DNA from: Patescibacteria group bacterium
GTDB lineage: Bacteria; Patescibacteriota; Minisyncoccia; Phycocordibacterales; Phycocordibacteraceae
NCBI GenBank assembly: GCA_040390125.1
Contig: JAZJYZ010000001.1
Coordinates: forward strand, 668,210-732,209
Direction of reading: 5' to 3'
Length of the DNA stretch: 64,000 nt
Part shown: positions 2,135 through 63,337 of the stretch, piece after piece
Layout of the letters: each line of letters opens with the position of its first letter
How positions within the stretch are numbered: the first letter of the stretch is position 1
The notes under the pieces: generated by a model
Told to the model about the DNA's origin: nothing
The model's input: the letters and a program-made list of their open reading frames with translations, nothing else
The model's database searches: none
Translations under genes and position numbers: made by a program

Positions 2135-2980
2135 ATGAAGCGTTGGCTGATTTCAGTAAGTGTAGTAATACTCATCGCACTACTCTCAACACCTTTGCAG
2201 GTTGCCGCCGAAACAGCTTCCGCAGGGATTCCTGAGGGAAATATTTGGCTTTCGAAAAGGACTCTCACTGAAGGAGAATCGGTTCGCATATTTTTGCCTG
2301 TCTATAATGCGAGCGCAGTAAAGATTTCTGGCGATGCAGTCTTTTCTGTCGATGCGATACAAGTGGGTACTGCACATTTTGAACTTGACGTTGGAAACTC
2401 CACAATAGTATCGAGTCCGTGGATCACAACTAAAGGACCACACTCAATAACGGCACGACTTGAAGGTGCTGTTGACGCAAAAACGGGTACCGAAATCGCC
2501 GTATCAGCAAACACGGAAACACTTGCTGTTGATGTAACTGAACGACCACCTGCACCCGTATTAGTGCAAGCACTTGCGAGTGTTGCTGACGTTGCACAAA
2601 ACACTGCGGCCGCTCTGCTTCCTGTTGTCTCCTCAGTTGCTGGTGCAGTATTTGATCAAACTGAAGAAATAAGAAAAAGTGCAGTAGTTGCACTTGAAAA
2701 TTCGTTGAACGGAACAGATGCTTCATCCGATACAACCGCACCGCAGGGGTTAGTGTTAGGTGCTGAAACATATCGTGCACCTGATCTAGGAAATGGGCTC
2801 GTAGCTTCCGCAATTACTGCACCCGCATCAACAGGTTTCATGCGTATACTCCAGAGCATACTTCTCTTTCTTATAAGTTACGTATGGATATTTTATCCGC
2901 TCTTGATTTTGATTCTTCTTGCAATTTTATATGTCATAGGAAAAGGACTATCCCGCAAGAAAGCAGGGGCTAGGTTCTAG
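2135..2980 (+). CDS. Hypothetical secreted protein with C-terminal transmembrane anchor
   Basis: 281-aa ORF. Signal peptide MKRWLISVSVVILIALLSTPLQVAA. C-terminal hydrophobic helix ILLFLISYVWIFYPLLILILLAILYVI followed by a basic tail. Confidence 0.6.
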   Translation: MKRWLISVSVVILIALLSTPLQVAAETASAGIPEGNIWLSKRTLTEGESVRIFLPVYNASAVKISGDAVFSVDAIQVGTAHFELDVGNSTIVSSPWITTKGPHSITARLEGAVDAKTGTEIAVSANTETLAVDVTERPPAPVLVQALASVADVAQNTAAALLPVVSSVAGAVFDQTEEIRKSAVVALENSLNGTDASSDTTAPQGLVLGAETYRAPDLGNGLVASAITAPASTGFMRILQSILLFLISYVWIFYPLLILILLAILYVIGKGLSRKKAGARF

Positions 2981-3040
2981 CTTCTAGGTGCTAGTTTAAA
3001 TTTCTGAAAGCTAGAAGCTAACAGCTAGCACCTAGAACCT
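2969..3040. repeat. Heptamer-periodic ctag-type, roughly palindromic intergenic element between convergent genes
   Basis: Left arm aggttctag/cttctag/gtgctag, centre tttaaatttctgaaag, right arm ctagaag/ctaacag/ctagcac/ctagaacc (reverse-complement 7-mers). The same design recurs in more than 12 other intergenic gaps in this window. Confidence 0.8.
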
Positions 3041-3053
3041 TTCAAAAGGCTCC

Positions 3054-3869
3054 TCAGAGGAGCATCAATATCGCTACAGCAAGTAAAACCCGATACACCG
3101 CAAACACATACAAGGGGTGTGTGCGGAGGAACTGCAGGAGGAAGTGGATCGCAAGAAGACCGCTCACAAATGCAACAACACTCCCAAGAATGAGCGGAGT
3201 GCCAATGACAGTAAATGCTCCCGCTCCATTAAGTTCAAAAAATTTCTTTAGCCCCGCTCCAAGAATAATAGGCACAGAAAGTAAAAAGCCAAAGCGTGCA
3301 GATGCTTCTCGTGAAAGCCCCAAAAACAGCCCACCTGAAATTGTCATGCCGGAACGGCTCATCCCCGGAATGAGTGCAAGGGATTGAAAAAATCCTATAC
3401 AGAGACTTCTCCAAAAACCTACCGCCTCTACACCAAGAGAAGTTTCCTTACGTTTTGACACATACTCCGCTACAAGAAAGACAACTGAGCCTGCAATGAG
3501 TGCATAGGCTACAAGATGAGTATTTCGAAACAATGTGTCCATGGTCTTCTCCAAAAAAAGACCAAAAATAATGGCGGGTATTGTGCCCACAATAAGTGCA
3601 ATGAGGAGTCGTGAGCTTTCTGCTTCTACAGGTTTCCCCAGCACCCTTTTAAGTGCAGTGTGTGCCAGATTCAATAAATCCTTAAAAAAGTACACTACAA
3701 CGGCAAGAATAGTGCCGAACTGCAACACCGCATCGACAGCAAGGCCATTTGCAGTGTTTGCACCAAGAATCTCCCGTACCACAATGAGATGCCCAGAAGA
3801 AGAAATTGGAAGAAACTCCGTAATTCCTTGCACGAGTCCCAAAATGCTAAAAATAAGCCAATCTCCCAT
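3054..3869 (-). CDS. uppP: Undecaprenyl-diphosphatase (UppP/BacA)
   Basis: 271 aa, multi-TM. Motifs GITEFLPISSSGHL and PGMSRSGMTISGG are characteristic of BacA/UppP. Confidence 0.9.
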   Translation of the reverse strand: MGDWLIFSILGLVQGITEFLPISSSGHLIVVREILGANTANGLAVDAVLQFGTILAVVVYFFKDLLNLAHTALKRVLGKPVEAESSRLLIALIVGTIPAIIFGLFLEKTMDTLFRNTHLVAYALIAGSVVFLVAEYVSKRKETSLGVEAVGFWRSLCIGFFQSLALIPGMSRSGMTISGGLFLGLSREASARFGFLLSVPIILGAGLKKFFELNGAGAFTVIGTPLILGSVVAFVSGLLAIHFLLQFLRTHPLYVFAVYRVLLAVAILMLL

Positions 3870-4683: not shown

Positions 4684-4692
4684 CATTTAAGA

Positions 4693-4769
4693 AGGTGCTA
4701 GCTTCTAGGTTCTAGGTGCTAGCTTTAACTTCCGAAAGCTAGAACCTAGTACCTAGTCCCTAGTACCTC
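4693..4769. repeat. ctag-type heptamer-periodic palindromic element between convergent gene ends
   Basis: aggtgctagcttctaggttctaggtgctagc - tttaacttccgaaagc - tagaacctagtacctagtccctagtacctc. The arms are near-reverse-complements built from NNNctag 7-mers. Confidence 0.8.
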
Positions 4770-5975: not shown

Positions 5976-6042
5976 ACTCATTATATCATATATATTACAT
6001 TTATCAATAGCTTATGCGGGAGACCTCGTAGGTCCTACATAT

Positions 6043-7323
6043 TTAGTATGAGCGGAGTCTTTTGGCTTTGCCGTGAGTGCGGATTTTTTCAAGTGCTTTT
6101 GCTTCAATCTGACGAATACGCTCACGAGTAACACCAAACTCCTGCCCTACCTCTTCGAGTGTGTGGTAAATGCCATCTTCAAGCCCATGACGCATTGCCA
6201 AAATTTTTCTTTCTTTTGGTGTGAGATCGCCCAAGATTTCGTGAAGCTGTTCAACAAGAATGCGATGAGCTGTTTCTTGGTCAGGCGTTGGGAGTGAATG
6301 GTCTGCAACGAAGTCACCACGAGCTGAGGCATCGTCATCATCCGATGAGCTGATAGGTGCCTCCAAAGAGAGTGTCTCTTGGTTGATTTGTTCAATCTGG
6401 TAGACCTTCTCAACATCGACACCCATCTCTGCAGAAATTTCTTCGGGCATCGGATCACGACCGAGGTCTTGTTCGAGTCTTCGTACTATTTGCTTGTACT
6501 TGGCAATCGTCTCCACCATGTGCACCGGAATACGAATAGTGCGTGATTGGTCCGCAAGAGCACGAGTGATGGCTTGTCGAATCCACCACGTAGCGTACGT
6601 AGAAAACTTATATCCTTTAGTGTAATCAAATTTATCAACGGCCTTGAAGAGTCCTAAGTTCCCTTCCTGAATGAGGTCGAGGAGTGACAAGTCCGATGAA
6701 CGTGATGCATATTTCTTTGCAATGGAAACAACGAGGCGAAGGTTTGCTCTCGCAAGAAGATTCTTTGCTTCTTCATCTCCTTCGGTGATACGTTTTGCAA
6801 GAGCTCGCTCTTCAGGACCCGTGAGGAGTGGATACTGGCCGATCTCACGCAAATACATTTGAATAGAGTCGTGTGCCGAGCCCTCGCCCCTGTAGCCCCC
6901 ACGCATTACCACCTCATCAGGCACTTCTTCGAGCATTCCACCTGACTCCAAGACATCAACACCTGATGTTGAAAGTCGCTCGTAGAGCTCTTCAAGAAAG
7001 ACTACATTCTCTTCGATCGTTGGAAATTCCTTTAAAATTTCATTGTACGTAACATAGCCACGCTCCTTACCTTTACCAATCAGACGTGAAGCTTTTGTCT
7101 CAAGAAGAGCACGCTTCTTACCAGAGAGTGCTTTAGCGGGCTTAGGTGCCTTTACCTTTGCTACCTTCTTTGCTGGTGCTTTCCCTTTGCGGAGCGGGAC
7201 CTTCTTTGCAGGCTTACTCTTTTGCTTCCCTGCTGGACGCACGACCTTCTTCACCACCTTTTTGCGGGGAGACGCCTTAACTGGCTTTTTTACCTTTTTG
7301 GATGTTGTTTTTTTCTTTGCCAT
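6043..7323 (-). CDS. rpoD: RNA polymerase sigma-70 factor RpoD with Lys-rich N-terminal tail
   Basis: Regions 2-4 are conserved ([57 protein letters not shown]). The N-terminal ~75 residues are KKxK/AKK repeats instead of an acidic region 1.1. Confidence 0.95.
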
Positions 7324-7349: not shown

Positions 7350-9149
7350 TTAGTGGAGCTTCAAAGCAAGCACGCTGAGCTCCTGCATGAGCGTCTCAGT
7401 TTTCGAATCATCATGTGCCATTTCGGCGACCCGCAATGATGCAAGAACTTCACGATAGCGTTCATGCCGAGATTCTTTCAAAAGTGCATCATACACTTCC
7501 TCGACCGCACTCTGTCGAAGCGATTCATCTTCATGACGCTCCAGAAAGAAATCGGCTTCGAATAATGCGGCACTGGTGTCCGTCGGGGCTTCGAGCAATA
7601 ATCGCAAACGCTCTTCGGAAAGCGCCCCCTTGAGGGCATTCAAGGCTAACTCGGCACCCGACTCATCTTTCTTTTCCTTATAGAGAAGTAGGAGCCCGAA
7701 TACAAGACGCTCGAGCACATCACCTCGTGACAAGAAAGGCTGGGACTGCGTTAGTACTGAGTTCTGAGTACTGAGTACTGAGCTCGGACTCTGGACTCTC
7801 GACTCTGAACTCTGAACTTTTTTAAGTTCCGCAATCACCGCATCCTCTCCAACTTGAAGCACTTCTGCAACACGCTTAATGAAATGTGCCTGGTCTATTT
7901 TGTGAGGAATCATTGCGACGTACGGTAGAACGGTACGGGAAACTTCAAGGCGGAATGTTCGTGCGTCATACTTAGCATCCGCAATGTGTGCAAGGTAAAA
8001 ATCAACCACGTGAAGAGCTCCTTTGACCGCCACTCTAAATGATTCTTTGTTTTCGAGAAGCATGTCTGCAGGGTCCTTCTCTGGGGGGAGTTTTACTATT
8101 TTTACGTCGAGACCAATCTGTAGCGCTATGCCAGCGGCACGCCCTGCAGCCGAGATGCCTGCCCTATCACCGTCATAGGCTATGAGGAGGTTACCGGTGT
8201 AGCGTTTTATTATTTCTGCGTGTGGAAGTGTAAACGCAGTTCCTGAGGTTGCGAGTGCGTTCCGATACCCTGCTTGGTGAGCCATGAGTAAATCAAGCTG
8301 TCCTTCAACGAGAAGTGCCGCACCGAGCTCTCGAATACCGTCACGTGCACGGTCAAGACCATAGAGTGCACGTGATTTATCGAATACAGGAGTTTCCGGA
8401 GAATTCAGATACTTGGCTTGCGGGTGCTTTTCATCGTCTTCAAAAATGCGGCCCGAAAACCCAATAACTCTCCCTGAAATATCCTTAATGGGAAACATGA
8501 TGCGACCACGAAACCGATCGTACGTCCGTGCCAAAGGCACGGACGAGTTCTGAGTTCCTAGTTCTGAGTTCTGAGTTAACTCTGGACTCGGAACTCTAGA
8601 CTCTGAACTTTCCTGCTGTTTCACTAGTCCCGCACGCTCCAAAAGAGCATCATCAAAATTCTTTTCAAGCAAAAAGTCCCGGAGACTATGCCACGCATTC
8701 GACGCATACCCCAAAGACCATGAAGATATAGTTTCTTCTGTTAACCCTCGCTTCGTGAGGTAGGTAAAAGCGTCTGGCTTTTCTTTGAGGGTCGCAGAGA
8801 AAAAACCATTAGCTGTTTCAAGAACAGAATACAAACGTTCACGCAAATCACGCTCACCAGGTTTCTCATCTTCTAGAGGGACGCCTGCTTTTTCTGCCAG
8901 CATTTTTAAGGAACCGCGAAAATCCACTCCTTCCATCTCTTGTAGGAATGTAAACATATCGCCTCCTTTGCCTGAGGAAAAACAGTGATACAAACCTCGG
9001 TCAGGAGAAACAAAAAATGAAGGGGTCTTTTCTTTCGTGAATGGAGAAAGCCCCTTGTAGTACTTCCCCGCACGTGTGAGCTTCACGTACTGCTGTACCA
9101 CTTCAAGAATAGTGAGTCGTTCCTTAATTTTATTGACGGTGTCGCTCAT
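7350..9149 (-). CDS. dnaG: DNA primase DnaG
   Basis: CHC2 zinc finger [15 protein letters not shown] and TOPRIM region EGQLDLL / YDGDRAG. Contains two in-frame low-complexity insertions (listed as repeats below). Confidence 0.9.
7750..7815. repeat. gagt(a/t)ct / gactctg heptamer mini-element inserted in frame inside dnaG
   Basis: agtactgagttctgagtactgagtactgagctc-ggactctggactctcgactctgaactctgaact, translated on the minus strand as [23 protein letters not shown]. Confidence 0.75.
8545..8618. repeat. Second copy of the gagttct/gactctg mini-element inside dnaG
   Basis: gagttctgagttcctagttctgagttctgagttaactctggactcggaactctagactctgaact, translated as [23 protein letters not shown]. Confidence 0.75.
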
Positions 9150-9790: not shown

Positions 9791-9878
9791 AGAGATATAG
9801 AAGGTAGAGCGTAGAGCGTAGTCGGTAGTTAAGAGTAGAAAGACTAAGTCGTTTCTAATTTCTACTCTCTACCCACTA
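9791..9878. repeat. gtagagc / ctctac heptamer-periodic element between the HAD start and the rpoC end
   Basis: tagaaggtagagcgtagagcgtagtcggtagttaagagtag ... tttctaatttctactctctacccactac. Same 7-nt periodic, half-palindromic design as the other intergenic elements. Confidence 0.7.
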
Positions 9879-9887
9879 CATTCTTGC

Positions 9888-17558: not shown

Positions 17559-17664
17559 AGAAAAATAGTATATTCTTTAAAATTTCTTTTTCAAAGTTGC
17601 CGTTCGTCCCTCCTATTTCCTGCCTCGAGGACGAGGTATCGGAAATTCCTGTCTTCGCAGGATC

Positions 17665-17868
17665 GGAAGAAACGCAAAACTATTCCTGTTTCGTTCCTCC
17701 TAAAACCTGTCTCGCTTGCTCGACAACGGTTTTTGCCGCAAAACGGCACCGGAAGAAACGCAAAACTATTCCTGTTTCGTTCCTCCTAAAACCTGTCTCG
17801 CTTGCTCGACAACGGTTTTTGCCGCAAAACGGCACCGGAAGAAACGCAAAACTATTTGCGTTTCTTCC
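17665..17868. repeat. 86-bp tandem direct repeat, 2 full copies plus a partial third ending in a perfect hairpin
   Basis: Unit ggaagaaacgcaaaactattcctgtttcgttcctcctaaaacctgtctcgcttgctcgacaacggtttttgccgcaaaacggcacc at 17665 and 17751. Third copy 17837-17868 is ggaagaaacgcaaa-acta-tttgcgtttcttcc (14-bp perfect stem). A degenerate copy precedes at about 17600-17664. Confidence 0.9.
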
Positions 17869-18616
17869 AAGCTTCAATCTTAGCGTGATTACCTGAAAGA
17901 AGAACTTTCGGAACCTTGTGATTCTTCCCCGCCCATTTAAAAATCTCCGGTCTGGTATAGACCTCCGAGCTAGAAATTCTCTCTTCTTCCACGGACTCAA
18001 ATTTTCCCAAAACACCAGGAATCTGGCGAGCAACAGCATCAATCACGACCATGGCTGGCAACTCCCCTCCAGTGAGAGTGTAAGAACCTACAGAAATTTT
18101 CTTCGCTTTCAATATCTTCTGAACCCGTGCATCAATACCCTCGTAATGCCCACATATCAGCACCACCTGCTTCTTAATGGCAGACATCGTATGTCTGCCA
18201 TTTTTACTCATCAATATTCTGGGTTTACGAAACCCAGAATATTGAGAATGAGCTAGGAGGCGGGCGTCTTTGTTTGTAAATTGCTTCCCCGATGCATCGA
18301 AAAAATAAATAACTGCCCCAGAACTCTGGACTCTGGACTTGGAACTCTGAACTTTTCTCAAAGCGGCTTCTACCGCTTTGAGAAACGGTTCTGCCTGAAG
18401 CACCATGCCAGGGCCACCTCCGTACGGGCGACCATCTACCTTTATGTAGGGCTTATCAGTTTTTTTAGTTACTTTTACAAAATCTCGTGGATTATAAAAT
18501 TTCACTTTAATGTGTTTATCCCGAATCGCTCGCCCAATGATGGAGGACGCAAGATATGAATCAAACGCCTCAGGAAAGAGCGTGACTACGTGAAAAGTCA
18601 GTGGCGTTTTTTTCAT
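17852..18616 (-). CDS. trmD: tRNA (guanine37-N1)-methyltransferase TrmD
   Basis: LTFHVVTLFPEAFDSYL and GGGPGMVL motifs. Contains an in-frame mini-element insertion (VQSSKSRVQSS). Its stop codon lies in the loop of the terminal repeat hairpin. Confidence 0.93.
   Translation of the reverse strand: MKKTPLTFHVVTLFPEAFDSYLASSIIGRAIRDKHIKVKFYNPRDFVKVTKKTDKPYIKVDGRPYGGGPGMVLQAEPFLKAVEAALRKVQSSKSRVQSSGAVIYFFDASGKQFTNKDARLLAHSQYSGFRKPRILMSKNGRHTMSAIKKQVVLICGHYEGIDARVQKILKAKKISVGSYTLTGGELPAMVVIDAVARQIPGVLGKFESVEEERISSSEVYTRPEIFKWAGKNHKVPKVLLSGNHAKIEAWKKRK
18310..18347. repeat. Half-copy (gaactct/gactctg type) of the dnaG mini-element inserted in frame in trmD
   Basis: cagaactctggactctggacttggaactctgaactttt, near-identical to the right arm of the dnaG insertions, translated as KVQSSKSRVQSSG. 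Confidence 0.7.
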
Positions 18617-21378: not shown

Positions 21379-22317
21379 ATGAAAAAAGAAATCGCTATAG
21401 TGGGATTGGGAAAAATGGGTAGCGCAATGGCTCGCCGGATGATGGAGAAAGGTTGGAAGGTTGTTGGCCTTGACCGCTCTTTGGAAACTCTTGAGACAAT
21501 GAAAGCCGAAGGAGTTGTAACGGTTTCTTCGTACAGCGAAATGGCAGCAGCTCTTACCGCCCCGAGAATCGTCTGGCTCTTTTTGCCTCCTCAGAAAAAC
21601 CTCGAAGAGGAACGCATCGTCGATCAAGAACTTTTTAATCCGGACGGGATCGTAAGTACTCTTGTAGCGGAGGACATTGTTATTGACGGCGGAAATTCCT
21701 TTTTCAAAGAAGCTGCACCGCGTGCTGAAAAACTCAAAGCGAAAGGTATTAATTTCATCGATGCAGGAACCTCAGGAGGACCTGCGGGTGCACGTAGCGG
21801 TGCATGCCTCATGATTGGAGGTGAAAGAAAAACTTTTGAATCAATAGAAGAACTCTTCAAAGATTTTGCACTCGAAGATGGTTATCGTTTCTTTGACGGT
21901 CATGGTGCAGGGCACTTTGTGAAAATGGTTCATAACGGCATTGAGTACGGAATGATGCAAACAATTGCCGAAGGGTTCGAATTACTAAAGAAGTCCGACT
22001 ACGCTCTTGATCTAGAGCGGGTTACCGACATCTATAATAATGGCTCCGTCATAGAATCCAGGCTCGTGGGATGGCTCGGTAACGCCTTCAAAGAAAGTAG
22101 CCAAAATTTGGATGGTATTTCATCAACCGTCCAGCATAATGGTGAAGGCGAATGGACAATACAAGCGGCAAAAGAAGCGGGAGTTGATGTGCACACGATT
22201 GAACACGCACTCCAGTTTCGTCTTGAATCAGAAAAGAACCCACGCTTCGCAGGTAAGGTGCTATCGGCAATGCGAAAGCAATTTGGTGGTCACAACGTTA
22301 AAGAAAAGCCCGAATAG
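21379..22317 (+). CDS. gnd: 6-phosphogluconate dehydrogenase (decarboxylating), short ~310-aa form
   Basis: IAIVGLGKMGSAMARRM Rossmann motif, DGGNSFF and VKMVHNGIEYGMMQ. The ATG at 21379 is preferred over the TTG at 21370. Confidence 0.88.
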   Translation: MKKEIAIVGLGKMGSAMARRMMEKGWKVVGLDRSLETLETMKAEGVVTVSSYSEMAAALTAPRIVWLFLPPQKNLEEERIVDQELFNPDGIVSTLVAEDIVIDGGNSFFKEAAPRAEKLKAKGINFIDAGTSGGPAGARSGACLMIGGERKTFESIEELFKDFALEDGYRFFDGHGAGHFVKMVHNGIEYGMMQTIAEGFELLKKSDYALDLERVTDIYNNGSVIESRLVGWLGNAFKESSQNLDGISSTVQHNGEGEWTIQAAKEAGVDVHTIEHALQFRLESEKNPRFAGKVLSAMRKQFGGHNVKEKPE

Positions 22318-22327
22318 TCGGGCTTTT
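22306..22327 (+). terminator. Intrinsic terminator of zwf-gnd overlapping the gnd stop codon
   Basis: agcccga-ata-gtcgggc hairpin followed by tttt. Confidence 0.55.
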
Positions 22328-22359
22328 CTAGTTCAGAGTTCTTAGTTCCTAGTCTTGAG
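22328..22359. repeat. Intergenic copy (left-arm type) of the gagttct mini-element between gnd and rpsP
   Basis: ctagttcagagttcttagttcctagtcttgagtt, the same 7-mers as the dnaG and trmD insertions. Confidence 0.7.
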
Positions 22360-22776
22360 TTATGCGGAAACTTCTTCTGAGGTAGTCTCTTCTGCAACCA
22401 CTTCTTCCGCAACAACCTCTGGTTCAGAAGCGACTTCGGCTGCCGGTTCACTTTTTGATCCCTTCGGATCCGACGAAGCGTCGCCTGCTTCACTTTTTAC
22501 TATCGGAGTCTTCTTTCCGAGCACATTCACCTTCTTACCCTCTATGACCTTATTCGTTATGAGGAGGTTATTGACGGTTCCTGAGAGCTGAGCGCCCATA
22601 GAAATCCAGTGCTTTACTCGTTCAGCGTTAATAACAGTGTGTTTGGTCTTTGGATTGTAGGAGCCGAGGACTTGGAGCGGGTGCCCAGCCTTAGGACTTC
22701 TCTGTTTCTCGAGAACGACTATACGAAATGCCGGATTATTCTTCCGTCCCGTGCGTTGAAATCTGATTGTAAGCAT
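22360..22776 (-). CDS. rpsP: 30S ribosomal protein S16 with acidic C-terminal extension
   Basis: MLTIRFQRTGRKNNPAFRIVVLEKQRSPK...LGSYNP is typical of S16. The C-terminal 45 aa is E/V/A-rich. Confidence 0.9.
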   Translation of the reverse strand: MLTIRFQRTGRKNNPAFRIVVLEKQRSPKAGHPLQVLGSYNPKTKHTVINAERVKHWISMGAQLSGTVNNLLITNKVIEGKKVNVLGKKTPIVKSEAGDASSDPKGSKSEPAAEVASEPEVVAEEVVAEETTSEEVSA

Positions 22777-24978: not shown

Positions 24979-25002
24979 TACCTTCATACAGAGATTTTCT
25001 CC

Positions 25003-25026
25003 TGTGCAACCTCCGGAGGTTGCACA
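25003..25026. repeat. 24-bp perfect palindrome tgtgcaacctccggaggttgcaca (TGTGC-N14-GCACA family) at the rnr 3' end
   Basis: Exact reverse-complement symmetry. A second identical copy is at 40229. The related copies 31836 and 40451 share the ends and the central ccgg. Confidence 0.85.
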
Positions 25027-25110
25027 GCTACTTACGAAGTGCATCTTGGCAAATTTTTCTGCATCAGAATCCAACGACCAAATTCTTTTTGATTCTGCTC
25101 TTTCAATTTC

Positions 25111-31112: not shown

Positions 31113-31148
31113 GAATAGCTTTCAGCTTTCAGGTGTGAGCTTTCAGGG
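31113..31148. repeat. agctttcag-type heptamer element upstream of smc
   Basis: atagctttcagctttcaggtgtgagctttcaggg, built from the same 7-mers as the elements at 35118, 50175 and 63259. Confidence 0.6.
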
Positions 31149-31776: not shown

Positions 31777-31835
31777 GTCGGGAAAATAACACAACAATAC
31801 CCGCAATGCAAGAGGAGTAATTTTAGCCCGTTTTT

Positions 31836-31859
31836 TGTGCTACACCCGGGTGTAGCACA
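31836..31859. repeat. 24-bp perfect palindrome tgtgctacacccgggtgtagcaca downstream of rnc
   Basis: Exact palindrome flanked by tttttt and aaa. An identical copy is at 40451. Confidence 0.85.
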
Positions 31860-31907
31860 AAGTACCCCTCTTTCCCTAAACACTAAACACTGTCCACTAA
31901 ACCCTAA

Positions 31908-33508: not shown

Positions 33509-33592
33509 AGTTAGAGAGTGGAAAGTGGAAGGTAGAAAGTAGAAACAAAATCTCAAGGTACAGAATAGCAAAAAATAACCTGCGTATGCAGG

Positions 33593-33901: not shown

Positions 33902-34128
33902 GCGTTCGAAGATACCAGAAAACCCCTAAAACAGCAAGGTTTTGAGTATAAAGACTTCCCTGAAAACTGAAACCTGACAGCTAAAAGCTGGCCTATTTCG
34001 CACACTTGAGTGCAGTCAAAAATATCTCAGATGCGAGGCACGAGCGAGCACCGTACCGAGCCATATCGAGCATATGGTGAAGGGAGGAGCGGAGTGAGGA
34101 ACGATGCAGATGAAGATTTTAGACGCAC

Positions 34129-34518: not shown

Positions 34519-35117
34519 GAGACAATAGTATCATTGACGATTCTCGAAAGAAAACTCATCCGGTGGATGGGTGAAGGACCGTATTCTTTAATAGCCTGAA
34601 TGTGTGATGCAGTCCCATACCCTTTATGCTTCTCAAAACCATATTGAGGTTGTTCCCCTGCAATCTTTACCATCAAGCGATCACGAGTAACTTTCGCAAC
34701 GATTGAAGCGAGCATAATGGCAGGAATCAATCCATCGCCACCAATAACAGTCTCTTGTTCATATTCAAAAGGTGCCTTGAGAGAACCATCAAGATATATT
34801 TTCCCTTCTCTGGGGTTAGGCATAAGTTTTCGCACGCCCTGCTCGAGCGCATGTGAAATAGCGTACGAGATTCCTTTTGTATCTATCACGTTTGAGCTCG
34901 ACAAGCACACGACTGCACGCACGCTTCCAACTTTCATTTCTTCTTGAAGACGCAGAAACAATAATTCACGTTTTTTCTCTGAAAGTTTTTTAGAATCGTT
35001 GAGCCCTGGAAATGCAGTGAGTAAATCAAAACCACTCTCTATCGCAACTACCCCCACGGCAACGGGTCCTGCCAAGGGTCCCCTGCCCGCTTCGTCAATT
35101 CCGAGAATGTAAGTCAT
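34515..35117 (-). CDS. rnhB: Ribonuclease HII
   Basis: ILGIDEAGRGPLAGPVAVGVV N-terminal catalytic motif. 200 aa. Confidence 0.92.
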   Translation of the reverse strand: MTYILGIDEAGRGPLAGPVAVGVVAIESGFDLLTAFPGLNDSKKLSEKKRELLFLRLQEEMKVGSVRAVVCLSSSNVIDTKGISYAISHALEQGVRKLMPNPREGKIYLDGSLKAPFEYEQETVIGGDGLIPAIMLASIVAKVTRDRLMVKIAGEQPQYGFEKHKGYGTASHIQAIKEYGPSPIHRMSFLSRIVNDTIVS

Positions 35118-35220
35118 AGCTTCTAGCTTTCAGCCTATAGCTTATAGGGAGGAAAGAAAGGTTTTTTGGGATATTGGATGTGTAAAGCTGGAAGCTGACA
35201 GCTGGAAGCTGTAAGCTACT
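35118..35220. repeat. Composite agcttctag / agctggaag heptamer element filling the divergent rnhB-dnaE gap
   Basis: agcttctagctttcagcctatagcttataggg ... aaagctggaagctgacagctggaagctgtaagctact. The central AT-rich 35 nt (ttttttgggatattggatgtgt) probably carries the divergent promoters. Confidence 0.7.
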
Positions 35221-38317: not shown

Positions 38318-38392
38318 GTTATAGGTTTTAGGGGATAGGTTTTAGTTTTCCCGATTTTAAACTAGCACCTATAACCTAGTCCCTAGAACCTG
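38318..38392. repeat. taggtt/aacctag heptamer palindromic element between dnaE and thrS
   Basis: gttataggttttaggggataggttttag - ttttcccgattttaaac - tagcacctataacctagtccctagaacc. Confidence 0.75.
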
Positions 38393-38414
38393 CCCTCTAT
38401 GCTATATTTTCAAA

Positions 38415-40189: not shown

Positions 40190-40216
40190 CATGTAGGACA
40201 TACGATGTCCTACATG
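40190..40216 (+). terminator. Perfect 12-bp hairpin catgtaggacat-acg-atgtcctacatg downstream of thrS
   Basis: Exact stem 36 nt after the thrS stop. No U-tract. Immediately followed by the 24-bp palindrome at 40229. Confidence 0.4.
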
Positions 40217-40228
40217 GTTATCTTCGTT

Positions 40229-40252
40229 TGTGCAACCTCCGGAGGTTGCACA
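40229..40252. repeat. 24-bp palindrome tgtgcaacctccggaggttgcaca (second copy)
   Basis: Identical to 25003-25026. Confidence 0.85.
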
Positions 40253-40450
40253 AACACAAATATTACTTGGGGGAATGAGTCGCAGTTTGCTGCAGAAATG
40301 CTTCTACCACGCCCTTTGGAGCTCGTCGCATCAAGTCCAGGAAGAACTTATACCTACTACCTCCCCTGCCAAGACCCCACCAGACATTTACGAGTTGCTC
40401 TAGGGTTACCGGTTTTAAAGCCTCTCGATGTTCCATATTTTTGATGTATT

Positions 40451-40474
40451 TGTGCTACACCCGGGTGTAGCACA
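40451..40474. repeat. 24-bp palindrome tgtgctacacccgggtgtagcaca (second copy)
   Basis: Identical to 31836-31859. Lies 60 nt past the 3' end of the adhesin gene. Confidence 0.85.
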
Positions 40475-40533
40475 AAATTGGTGGGATTAATCTGCGGGCT
40501 GTCACACCTTCCCTTCTCATACGTTTTAGTTAA

Positions 40534-50174: not shown

Positions 50175-50218
50175 CTAAAAAGCTGAAAGCTAACAGCTGA
50201 AACCTGAAAGCTAAAAAG
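50175..50218. repeat. agctgaa-type heptamer element abutting the gyrB stop
   Basis: ctaaaaagctgaaagctaacagctgaaacctgaaagctaaaaag. Confidence 0.7.
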
Positions 50219-56456: not shown

Positions 56457-56503
56457 AATTAGAAAGTGGAAAGTAGGATATAGAAGGTAGATAACAACAT
56501 AGA

Positions 56504-63258: not shown

Positions 63259-63337
63259 AAAAGCTGTCAGGTGCCAGCTGTCAGCTTTTAGCTTTTAAAT
63301 TCAAAGCTAGAACCTGGAAGCTGAAAGCTAGAAGCTT
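63259..63337. repeat. agctgtcag / agctggaag heptamer palindromic element between the release factor and rpsB
   Basis: aaaagctgtcaggtgccagctgtcagcttttagc - ttttaaattcaa - agctagaacctggaagctgaaagctagaagctttc. Confidence 0.75.

Follow-up and report, generated by a model that had tools for sequence, protein, structure and literature searches.

An in-frame heptanucleotide array in trmD of a Patescibacteria genome shares DNA-level similarity with copies in dnaG and in an intergenic spacer

Within a 64,000-nt stretch of a Patescibacteria genome (contig JAZJYZ010000001.1; ‘the window’ hereafter, meaning this whole stretch), the trmD gene, whose product is an essential tRNA methyltransferase, carries a short in-frame array of degenerate 7-nt units, or heptads, that is related in its DNA, and not merely in its encoded peptide, to arrays in two linkers of dnaG and to a non-coding array between gnd and rpsP. 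Bringing the evidence together, we suggest, at somewhat better than even odds (a probability of roughly 0.55), that these copies have been spread or maintained by a process acting at the level of nucleic acid, rather than having originated independently at each site. The trmD segment represents one arm of a heptad palindrome of ~66-70 nt (five AGTYCNN units, then ~four near-complementary CTCAGWA units), belonging to a DNA-level repeat class that fills many intergenic spacers of this Paceibacteria genome and has also taken up positions in essential genes, at loops and linkers where it can be tolerated. All counts of repeats, arrays, hairpins and Y1 transposase genes given for the host genome are for the window; comparisons draw on orthologues whose DNA was retrieved from relatives (designated L001 and so on), seven for trmD and four for dnaG, and on 113 TrmD protein homologues.

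The host open reading frame (ORF; 17852-18616, minus strand, 254 amino acids) is intact, and its product is 100% identical to P0001 (NCBI MES2135365.1, encoded on a contig of 748,944 bp from a Patescibacteria metagenome assembly), which NCBI names TrmD. PDB TrmD chains match it at E of about 4e-39, and the TrmD model NF000648 does so at E=3e-61 in two stretches, with 206 bits against an NCBIfam curated cut-off of 220; we attribute this low score to the inserts in the protein. The names trmD, dnaG, gnd and rpsP assigned in a preliminary description of the window are all borne out, as is its placing of the trmD segment in frame. The 38-nt string itself is real and occurs once in the window; its plus-strand coordinates are 18319-18356, so that the position originally given, 18310-18347, was 9 nt too far to the left. 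Read in sense, it comprises five degenerate AGTYCNN heptads and encodes K88-VQSSKSRVQSS-G100 (KVQSSKSRVQSSG). Tandem Repeats Finder (TRF) reports it at period 7 with 4.4 copies (18323-18353), and its autocorrelation is high for lags 7 (0.72) and 14 (0.68), compared with 0.00-0.31 for lags 1-6 and 8-13. Relative to L006, which is array-free and the nearest relative among those with trmD DNA fetched, ~33 nt of the arm (18320-18352) are extra.

A degenerate 19-mer taken from the trmD arm finds six sites in the window at up to three mismatches, against an expectation of 0.02; they fall in the trmD copy itself, in the two linkers of dnaG and in the spacer between gnd and rpsP (Table 1). The trmD arm is identical to the copy in the C-terminal linker of dnaG at 31 of 36 bases, and to that in the N-terminal linker at 28 of 37 (a hand count), such that the earlier wording ‘nearly identical’ overstates what is a similarity. 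An intergenic copy between gnd and rpsP had also been claimed and does exist, although at 22330-22361 and not at 22328-22359; it holds stop codons, which the reading frames of the coding copies do not, and it follows a hairpin in the same order as the array in trmD. In this same spacer, the close relatives L006 (6456-6623) and L002 (6419-6592) have a gene of 55-57 amino acids; the window (22318-22359) lacks that gene and has the heptad arm in its place.

The similarity lies in the DNA. Back-translation of both peptides with the codon usage of the window predicts 22.9±2.6 identical bases where 31 of 36 are observed (P=6e-4), and back-translations of the trmD peptide attain the lag-7 autocorrelation of 0.72 with P=1.5e-4; moreover, the N-terminal-linker dnaG copy is translated in a different frame from the trmD copy, and the gnd/rpsP copy is not coding at all. 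The preliminary description had argued for shared DNA, and had proposed weighing nucleotide against amino-acid identity; an identity no higher than peptide and codon choice predict would have spoken against it, and the observed identity lies well above that level.

On the sense strand, each coding copy begins with an A-rich start, followed by AGTTCAG AGTYC.. and so on through ~five AGTYCNN heptads, and both dnaG copies continue with ~four CTCAGWA heptads, forming imperfect palindromes of 64-70 nt whose arms pair at about 75-78%. Arrays of AGTTCAG and of CTCAGAA contain zero stop codons in all frames; in the exact complements, by contrast, no frame is free of them. Because the pair of units must be stop-free, the arms of the coding palindromes are not exact complements (there is one mismatch per heptad), and it is likewise because it is stop-free that only the AGTTCAG family, and none of the CTAG-containing families, occurs inside genes of the window. 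A single heptad arm shows no self-folding past a short stem and has no GTAG or CGTC tag; fold z-scores of the elements range from -3.4 to -10.

Mapping of the TrmD insert onto structure, as had been proposed, places it in a coil loop at the surface, between helix residues 75-86 and strand residues 102-112. In an AlphaFold2 model, itself modest (mean predicted local distance difference test score, pLDDT, of 67.6; shallow alignment), the insert is coil with pLDDT<50 (model residues 88-96), lying between helix 74-85 and strand 101-111, and the alignment to the solved H. influenzae TrmD breaks at the insert (query 86-140 corresponding to chain residues 83-105). The segment from GGGPGM to YFFD has a modal length of 22 residues (73 of the 113 homologues) and is longer by at least 4 residues in about 22 of the 113. 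Translation of the array is predicted to give a disordered loop of Ser, Gln, Lys and Arg, one which the enzyme would tolerate. Inserts of this kind depress family-model scores and cause local phylogenetic incongruence in marker genes.

The same position in relatives (TrmD site 1) is occupied in several different ways: by full AGTYCAG palindromes in L131, L001 and L130, by GATTCAR and GAAAGCY arrays in L002, and in L007 by a TGAAGNN/CCTTCAA palindrome whose centre contains additional, nested hairpins; in L006 it is empty. That one trmD site can hold a full palindrome, half of one, an unrelated array or no array at all makes it possible to test by comparative genomics how heptanucleotide arrays originate. 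The window trmD aligns to the left arm of each full palindrome, while ~33 nt, made up of the loop and the right arm, are missing from it; the window copy would most simply be an in-frame ~33-nt deletion derivative, a better reading than the inserted ‘half-copy’ of the preliminary description. In L007 trmD (6240-6390), the extra hairpins amount to ~22 codons exactly at the palindrome centre, present in the protein P0034 and not in its close relative P0027, which looks like a nested insertion at a hairpin tip.

Sequence conservation is concentrated in these same patches. Between the window and L004, dnaG is 66.4% identical overall, with the best 60-nt segment reaching 98% and starting at the first base of the N-terminal-linker palindrome; within this element 65 of 66 positions agree, and the single change is non-synonymous. 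A decayed copy in L005 dnaG is still the best-scoring segment of its alignment, and L003 has an unrelated GAAAGTA palindrome at the site. In trmD, the window and L001 agree at 67.5% overall with a peak of 92% at hairpin and array. By identity over 618 ungapped columns, however, window trmD groups with L002 and L006 (0.77-0.79), not with L001, L007, L130 and L131 (0.68-0.70), whereas its 30-nt hairpin matches L130 at 29 of 30 positions as against 18 of 30 for L006, and its left arm matches L131 at 30 of 32 (the figures for L004, L130 and L131 are hand counts). From these alignments, the patch of hairpin plus array appears to group with a distant trmD clade and not with the nearest relatives, and the trmD and dnaG patches appear to evolve unlike neutral linkers. 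Either the patch has moved between lineages, or there is strong constraint at the nucleotide level in some lineages together with loss in others.

We therefore envisage, as a working model, that the palindrome at TrmD site 1 came to occupy the loop that follows the helix LKAVEAALR and leads into the strand VIYFFD, and that the window copy subsequently lost ~33 nt (loop and right arm) in frame. Selection would act as a filter, with only in-frame, stop-free versions surviving in genes, and the underlying process might be short-patch recombination, gene conversion between copies or lineages, or transposition. The abundance of the repeat class speaks for this model: in the window, 25 of 42 TRF rows have a period of 7, 14 or 21, against 0-4 in twenty composition-preserving shuffles, and our own scan together with a reading of all spacers found about 20 arrays of several unit families, mostly intergenic (Table 1). 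Most are inverted pairs in spacers, usually with ~five heptads per arm, and several are single arms. The common mobile or recombinogenic origin put forward in the preliminary description fares correspondingly: a recombinational or mobile history, or else strong nucleotide constraint, fits the incongruence of the patch, but the mobile part is not helped by the lack of any target-site duplication, of exact non-orthologous copies among the metagenome contigs searched, and of a transposase gene in the window.

Several observations weigh against spread or maintenance at the nucleic-acid level. No target-site duplication was found, and no defined termini beyond a shared A-rich left flank; nor is there a direct repeat on either side of the 33 nt that the window has in excess of L006, or around the remaining copies. 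There are just four copies of the family in 64 kb, 76-86% alike, unlike the near-identical copies of active repetitive extragenic palindromic (REP) doublets (REPINs) or of MITEs, miniature transposable elements with inverted repeats. Searches of metagenome contigs with exact 20- and 25-mers revealed no non-orthologous copies, a weak negative given that the collection missed L001 itself: a 25-mer from the dnaG palindrome had zero matches, and a 20-mer common to window and L001 trmD had two, both unrelated (a heptad array between tRNA genes of a GC-rich organism, and an AT-rich contig). Arrays of AGTTCAG, many of them paired with an inverted partner, are spread over numerous unrelated phyla, so that independent origin through a common mutational process is possible, and intergenic arrays at orthologous sites differ in close relatives, which looks like rapid local turnover.

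These last points belong to the rival that survives best, namely that each array arose in situ as a microsatellite, by slippage on a 7-nt unit with inverted partners produced through hairpin-templated strand switching, and that the copies are alike only because the same unit is favoured and stop-free. We consider this rather unlikely. In its favour, heptameric repeats are over-represented in many bacteria, often as inverted pairs and with 7-32% intragenic, and slippage has been proposed for them (PMC4692102). A scan of species-representative genomes for AGTTCAG-type arrays gave at least 120 loci; among the matches listed, 58 of 127 sites extend as arrays, 30 of 127 have an inverted partner within 220 nt, and Acidobacteriota, Bacteroidota, Clostridia, Nitrospirota, Patescibacteria and others are represented. 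The AGTTCAG unit thus extends beyond any single lineage, and arguing common descent from the likeness of two arrays becomes harder accordingly. (A scan of viral contigs gave 48 matches, about a third array-like, and is uninformative on spread; a protein search with a synthetic peptide translated from an array found only five short hypothetical proteins.) Different units also occupy the same TrmD and DnaG sites, and orthologous intergenic sites, in different lineages, the spacer arrays of window and L006 differing at both sites compared, and no element termini were found.

Set against slippage is, in the first place, an arm length fixed narrowly at about 5 units: 16 of 21 period-7 TRF rows have 4.3-4.9 copies and no row goes beyond 5.4, from which the trmD ‘half-copy’ can be seen to be one standard arm. 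Unit identity is 68-91% in 17 of these 21 rows, with perfect units only in four short arrays of 2-3 copies, and the slippage signature of near-perfect units in variable copy number was not seen among the TRF rows of the window. Secondly, the order of variant units is kept at 65 of 66 and 30 of 32 nt between lineages 30-34% diverged elsewhere, and thirdly, the patch is incongruent with the relationships of the genes.

A second rival holds that hairpin and palindrome are together a functional cis-element, selected as a nucleic-acid structure or protein-binding site (ribosome-pausing mRNA structure at a domain boundary, internal attenuator and mRNA-stability element being the candidates), with the peptide as a by-product; we regard this as unlikely. 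As to hairpins, the window has 22 perfect ones with stems of at least 9 bp, as against 0-4 in shuffles, five of them inside called ORFs (three in trmD, one in dnaG and one in a doubtful 79-amino-acid ORF). Of the four family copies in the window, three have an array directly adjoined by a hairpin, the exception being the C-terminal dnaG linker. The 13-bp trmD hairpin, whose codons specify FLKAVEAALRK, lies directly upstream of the array in the sense direction and is accompanied by an array in L001, L007, L130 and L131; over seven lineages 91% of its cells are paired, and three pairs are altered on both sides. The dnaG hairpin that starts with CGTC immediately precedes the conserved RxYDRFRG motif; in each of three lineages its stem pairs completely, and two of the pairs are compensatory, although three sequences carry little statistical weight; the compensatory changes in L004 and L005 swap Val and Ala codons with pairing kept.

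This compensation in both adjacent hairpins accords with a selected structure, as do the fold z-scores, the position of the sites at domain or secondary-structure boundaries, and the fact that, when diverged lineages are compared, nucleotide conservation in dnaG and trmD is highest in the blocks formed by the elements, with the one difference from L004 falling at a non-synonymous position. U-rich IYFFD codons follow the palindrome, and a consensus scan flags the remnant stem CCAGAG..TTCTGG with the T-rich run of these codons (18317-18337, minus strand) as terminator-like; in lineages with a full palindrome, a long hairpin would stand before this U-rich tract within trmD. Terminator-like matches are, however, not above the expectation from shuffles, and the covariation comes from only 3-7 sequences. 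An Rfam search of the window matched one tRNA and no other family. The window copy has, besides, dispensed with its right arm and the closest relatives with the element altogether, unrelated arrays stand at the same site in different lineages, and the pairing of the palindromes, at about 75-78%, is poor.

More doubtful again is a REPIN-like element moved as a single strand by a REP-associated tyrosine transposase (RAYT, of the Y1/HUH type), in which single arms would be dead remnants. A gene for a RAYT-like Y1/HUH transposase of 232 amino acids adjoins trmD in L001 (3871-4569, plus strand) and L007 (6837-7535, minus strand), the two relatives with the longest TrmD proteins among those fetched. 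For Pfam Y1_Tnp, which has a gathering score of 23, the two products reach 23.1 and 33.4 bits; they match NCBIfam REP_Tyr_transpos at E=3e-9 and 1.5e-10, below the curated cut-off. Each gene has matching hairpins on both sides, GAGTGACCT-CGT/ACG-AGGTCACTC in L001 and CACGAGG-TTTCG-CCTCGTG in L007. Hairpins with the same CGT/ACG loop stand in frame at a second variable TrmD site (residues about 123-149): two perfect ones in the window, encoding QYSGFRKPRIL and NGRHTMSAI, and other perfect ones in L002 and L006; in L004 they cluster after rpoD. Bertels and Rainey (2011) reportedly described REPINs (doublets) and REP singlets, forms which the doublets and singlets here resemble.

For the simple hairpins, then, the Y1 gene and its surroundings fit a REP/RAYT-like system, without a link to the heptad arrays: what surrounds the RAYT-like genes are simple stems and not heptad arrays, and a single heptad arm, unlike a REP, is not itself a palindrome. 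A tblastn search found no Y1 gene in the 64-kb window, the NCBIfam scores fall short of the cut-off, and REPs are extragenic by definition.

Convergence on a low-complexity linker selected as protein is very improbable, for although every coding copy is situated in a loop or linker and specifies a hydrophilic peptide rich in Ser and Gln, the codon-level test, the 7-nt period, the non-coding copy and the difference in frame speak against it, and nucleotide conservation extends to synonymous sites. Three further readings were rejected. The same sites hold arrays in independent NCBI, JGI, ENA and Logan assemblies, which speaks against an assembly artefact; by reasoning, and with no dedicated test, a phase-variation locus was set aside in that a one-unit change would frameshift an essential gene, and a diversity-generating retroelement target, intein or intron in that the segment is translated straight through and shows no such motifs.

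Returning to spread or maintenance at the level of nucleic acid, a stronger version can be put forward only tentatively, as we think it improbable: that the heptad palindromes are actively maintained, very small DNA elements of Paceibacteria, either mobile (REPIN-like) or copy-corrected from master copies, which home to hairpin-bearing sites. Were this so, the mover might be the RAYT-like Y1 protein found beside trmD in two relatives, and the homing sites would include loops of essential genes, where stop-free variants turn into protein linkers. It would account for the fixed five-heptad arms, for 95-98% identity across lineages 30-34% diverged, for the incongruence of patch and gene, and for nested insertion at palindrome centres (P0027 versus P0034). 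If the DNA-level maintenance or movement proposed here is correct, candidate-phyla bacteria with very small genomes carry an undescribed class of very small repeats that reshape essential proteins as Rickettsia palindromic elements (RPEs) do. The 7-nt periodicity that these repeats use is still unexplained in cyanobacteria, Xanthomonas and Beggiatoaceae.

In kind, the trmD segment belongs with heptanucleotide repeat arrays, and it behaves like RPEs. With the former (the short tandemly repeated repetitive sequences, STRR, of Calothrix and Nostoc, GGGAATC of Xanthomonas, GGGGAYT of Nostoc and TAACTGA of Beggiatoaceae) it has the period of 7 in common, and the likeness extends to many arrays per genome, a mostly intergenic location and frequent inverted pairs capable of forming stem-loops (PMC4692102, PMC4679880), as well as to a minority in genes at tolerant positions and a frequent location just before start codons. 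Xanthomonas has 70-75 inverted pairs of such heptameric repeats with 7-11% intragenic, and in Nostoc about a third are intragenic (PMC4692102); the TAACTGA repeats lie just upstream of start codons, with intragenic ones mostly at protein ends (PMC4679880). The arrays of the window differ in that their units are degenerate and of several families in one genome, their arms are nearly fixed at about 5 units rather than variable in copy number, the coding copies occupy internal loops, and not the ends, of proteins that are essential enzymes, and some copies are conserved between diverged lineages, where their conservation or their incongruence is anomalous.

RPEs are the classic in-frame palindromic inserts, of about 100-150 bp (PMC10969869), and share with the present elements the presence of palindromic DNA in frame in unrelated housekeeping genes, translated and at positions compatible with the fold (PMC10969869); here, ORFs run through the trmD copy and the two dnaG copies. 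RPEs differ in being about 150 bp long, not built of 7-nt units and of Rickettsia families, whereas the window elements measure 35-70 nt in a Patescibacterium host, and a relationship in sequence between the two is not to be expected. REP/REPIN and RAYT systems resemble them in having short hairpin-forming repeats as inverted doublets and singlets, and in the RAYT-like Y1 gene that two relatives have next to trmD, with hairpins on both sides of it; one dnaG copy is also abutted by a hairpin starting with CGTC, which recalls the tag concept (PMC3733652). Heptad arms differ from REPs in not being self-palindromic, in having no GTAG/CGTC tag and in not being the sequences that flank the RAYT-like genes, and three of the four family copies in the window lie within coding sequence, in contrast to extragenic REPs. 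MITEs and terminator-like elements (SPRITE of pneumococcus) are likewise small, non-coding, hairpin-forming and dispersed, often at gene 3′ ends, but the window elements are much shorter and have neither insertion-sequence terminal inverted repeats nor target-site duplications. The literature searched contained no report of REPs or heptad arrays in Patescibacteria.

Table 1. Coordinates of heptad arrays and associated hairpins in the window.
Feature	Position	Strand	Details
Heptad array arm in trmD	18319..18356	-	sense AAAAGTTCAG AGTTCCA AGTCCAG AGTCCAG AGTTCTG
Perfect 13-bp hairpin in trmD	18354..18385	-	TTTCTCAAAGCGG / CCGCTTTGAGAAA, 6-nt loop; z=-5.0
Hairpins at trmD site 2	18176-18202, 18211-18245	-	12-bp and 16-bp stems, 3-nt CGT/ACG loop; z -10.3
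Full heptad palindrome, dnaG linker between polymerase domain and C-terminal domain	7753..7821	-	sense left arm is best match to trmD copy
Perfect 10-bp hairpin in dnaG	8523..8545	-	CGTCCGTGCC-AAA-GGCACGGACG (+ strand), starts CGTC; abuts dnaG palindrome
Full heptad palindrome, dnaG linker between zinc-binding domain and polymerase domain	8546..8609	-	z=-6.4; 65/66 to L004 copy
12-bp terminator-type hairpin of gnd	22302..22329	+	directly upstream of intergenic arm
Non-coding single arm	22330..22361	+	AGTTCAG AGTTCTT AGTTCCT AGTCTTG AGTT; between gnd and rpsP stop codons
AGTTCAG family arrays	trmD, dnaG (two), gnd/rpsP spacer		
CTAGNNN family arrays	2965-3040, 4692-4768, 38318-38414		
GAAAGCT family arrays	31117-31146, 33960-33989, 35116-35217, 50179-50216, 63265-63337		
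GTAGAGC and GAAAGTR family arrays	9794-9880, 33512-33548, 56457-56503		
CACTAAA family array	31876-31907		

Among the hairpins, the core GACAT-ACG-ATGTC of trmD site 2 is found again intergenically at 40190-40216. A tandem repeat of 2.2 copies, 100% identical to one another, has a unit of 86 bp (window 17664-17856) that starts within the final codons of trmD (WKKRK) and contains a 14-bp hairpin across the trmD stop codon; a homologous sequence of ~90 nt lies in frame within L001 trmD (3165-3262), encoding KWKKRKLLSVSSGAAS. Directly downstream of rpoD in L004 (4641-4715), three successive CGT-loop hairpins (GGACAT-CGT-ATGTCC, AGGATTT-CGT-AAATCCT and CATGTTCAACCT-CGT-AGGTCGAACATG) are arranged like a REP cluster, and a single related hairpin follows rpoD in the window (about 6019-6039). 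Hairpins with a CCGG loop form two families of dispersed terminator-like repeats: TTTGTGCTACAC-CCGG-GTGTAGCACAAA, with identical copies at 31834-31861 and 40449-40476, and GTGCAACCT-CCGG-AGGTTGCAC, present twice, at 25002-25027 and 40226-40255.

Among the arrays, a perfect (AGTTCAG)n occurs in L035 (7971-8000; Patescibacteria isolate SO_2017_GW1_162), in frame after IPRPETEVLVEEVLK, the locus ending inside the array; the gene has an IPRPETE motif and is one which we take to encode a PrmC/HemK-like methyltransferase. Finally, sense-oriented arrays of the (GAAAGCT)n type stop 0-17 nt upstream of five start codons (window 35184-35217, 35118-35147, 63265-63297 and 31117-31146; L006 19950-19990) and, recalling the TAACTGA repeats of Beggiatoaceae, may by analogy bear on the initiation of translation.

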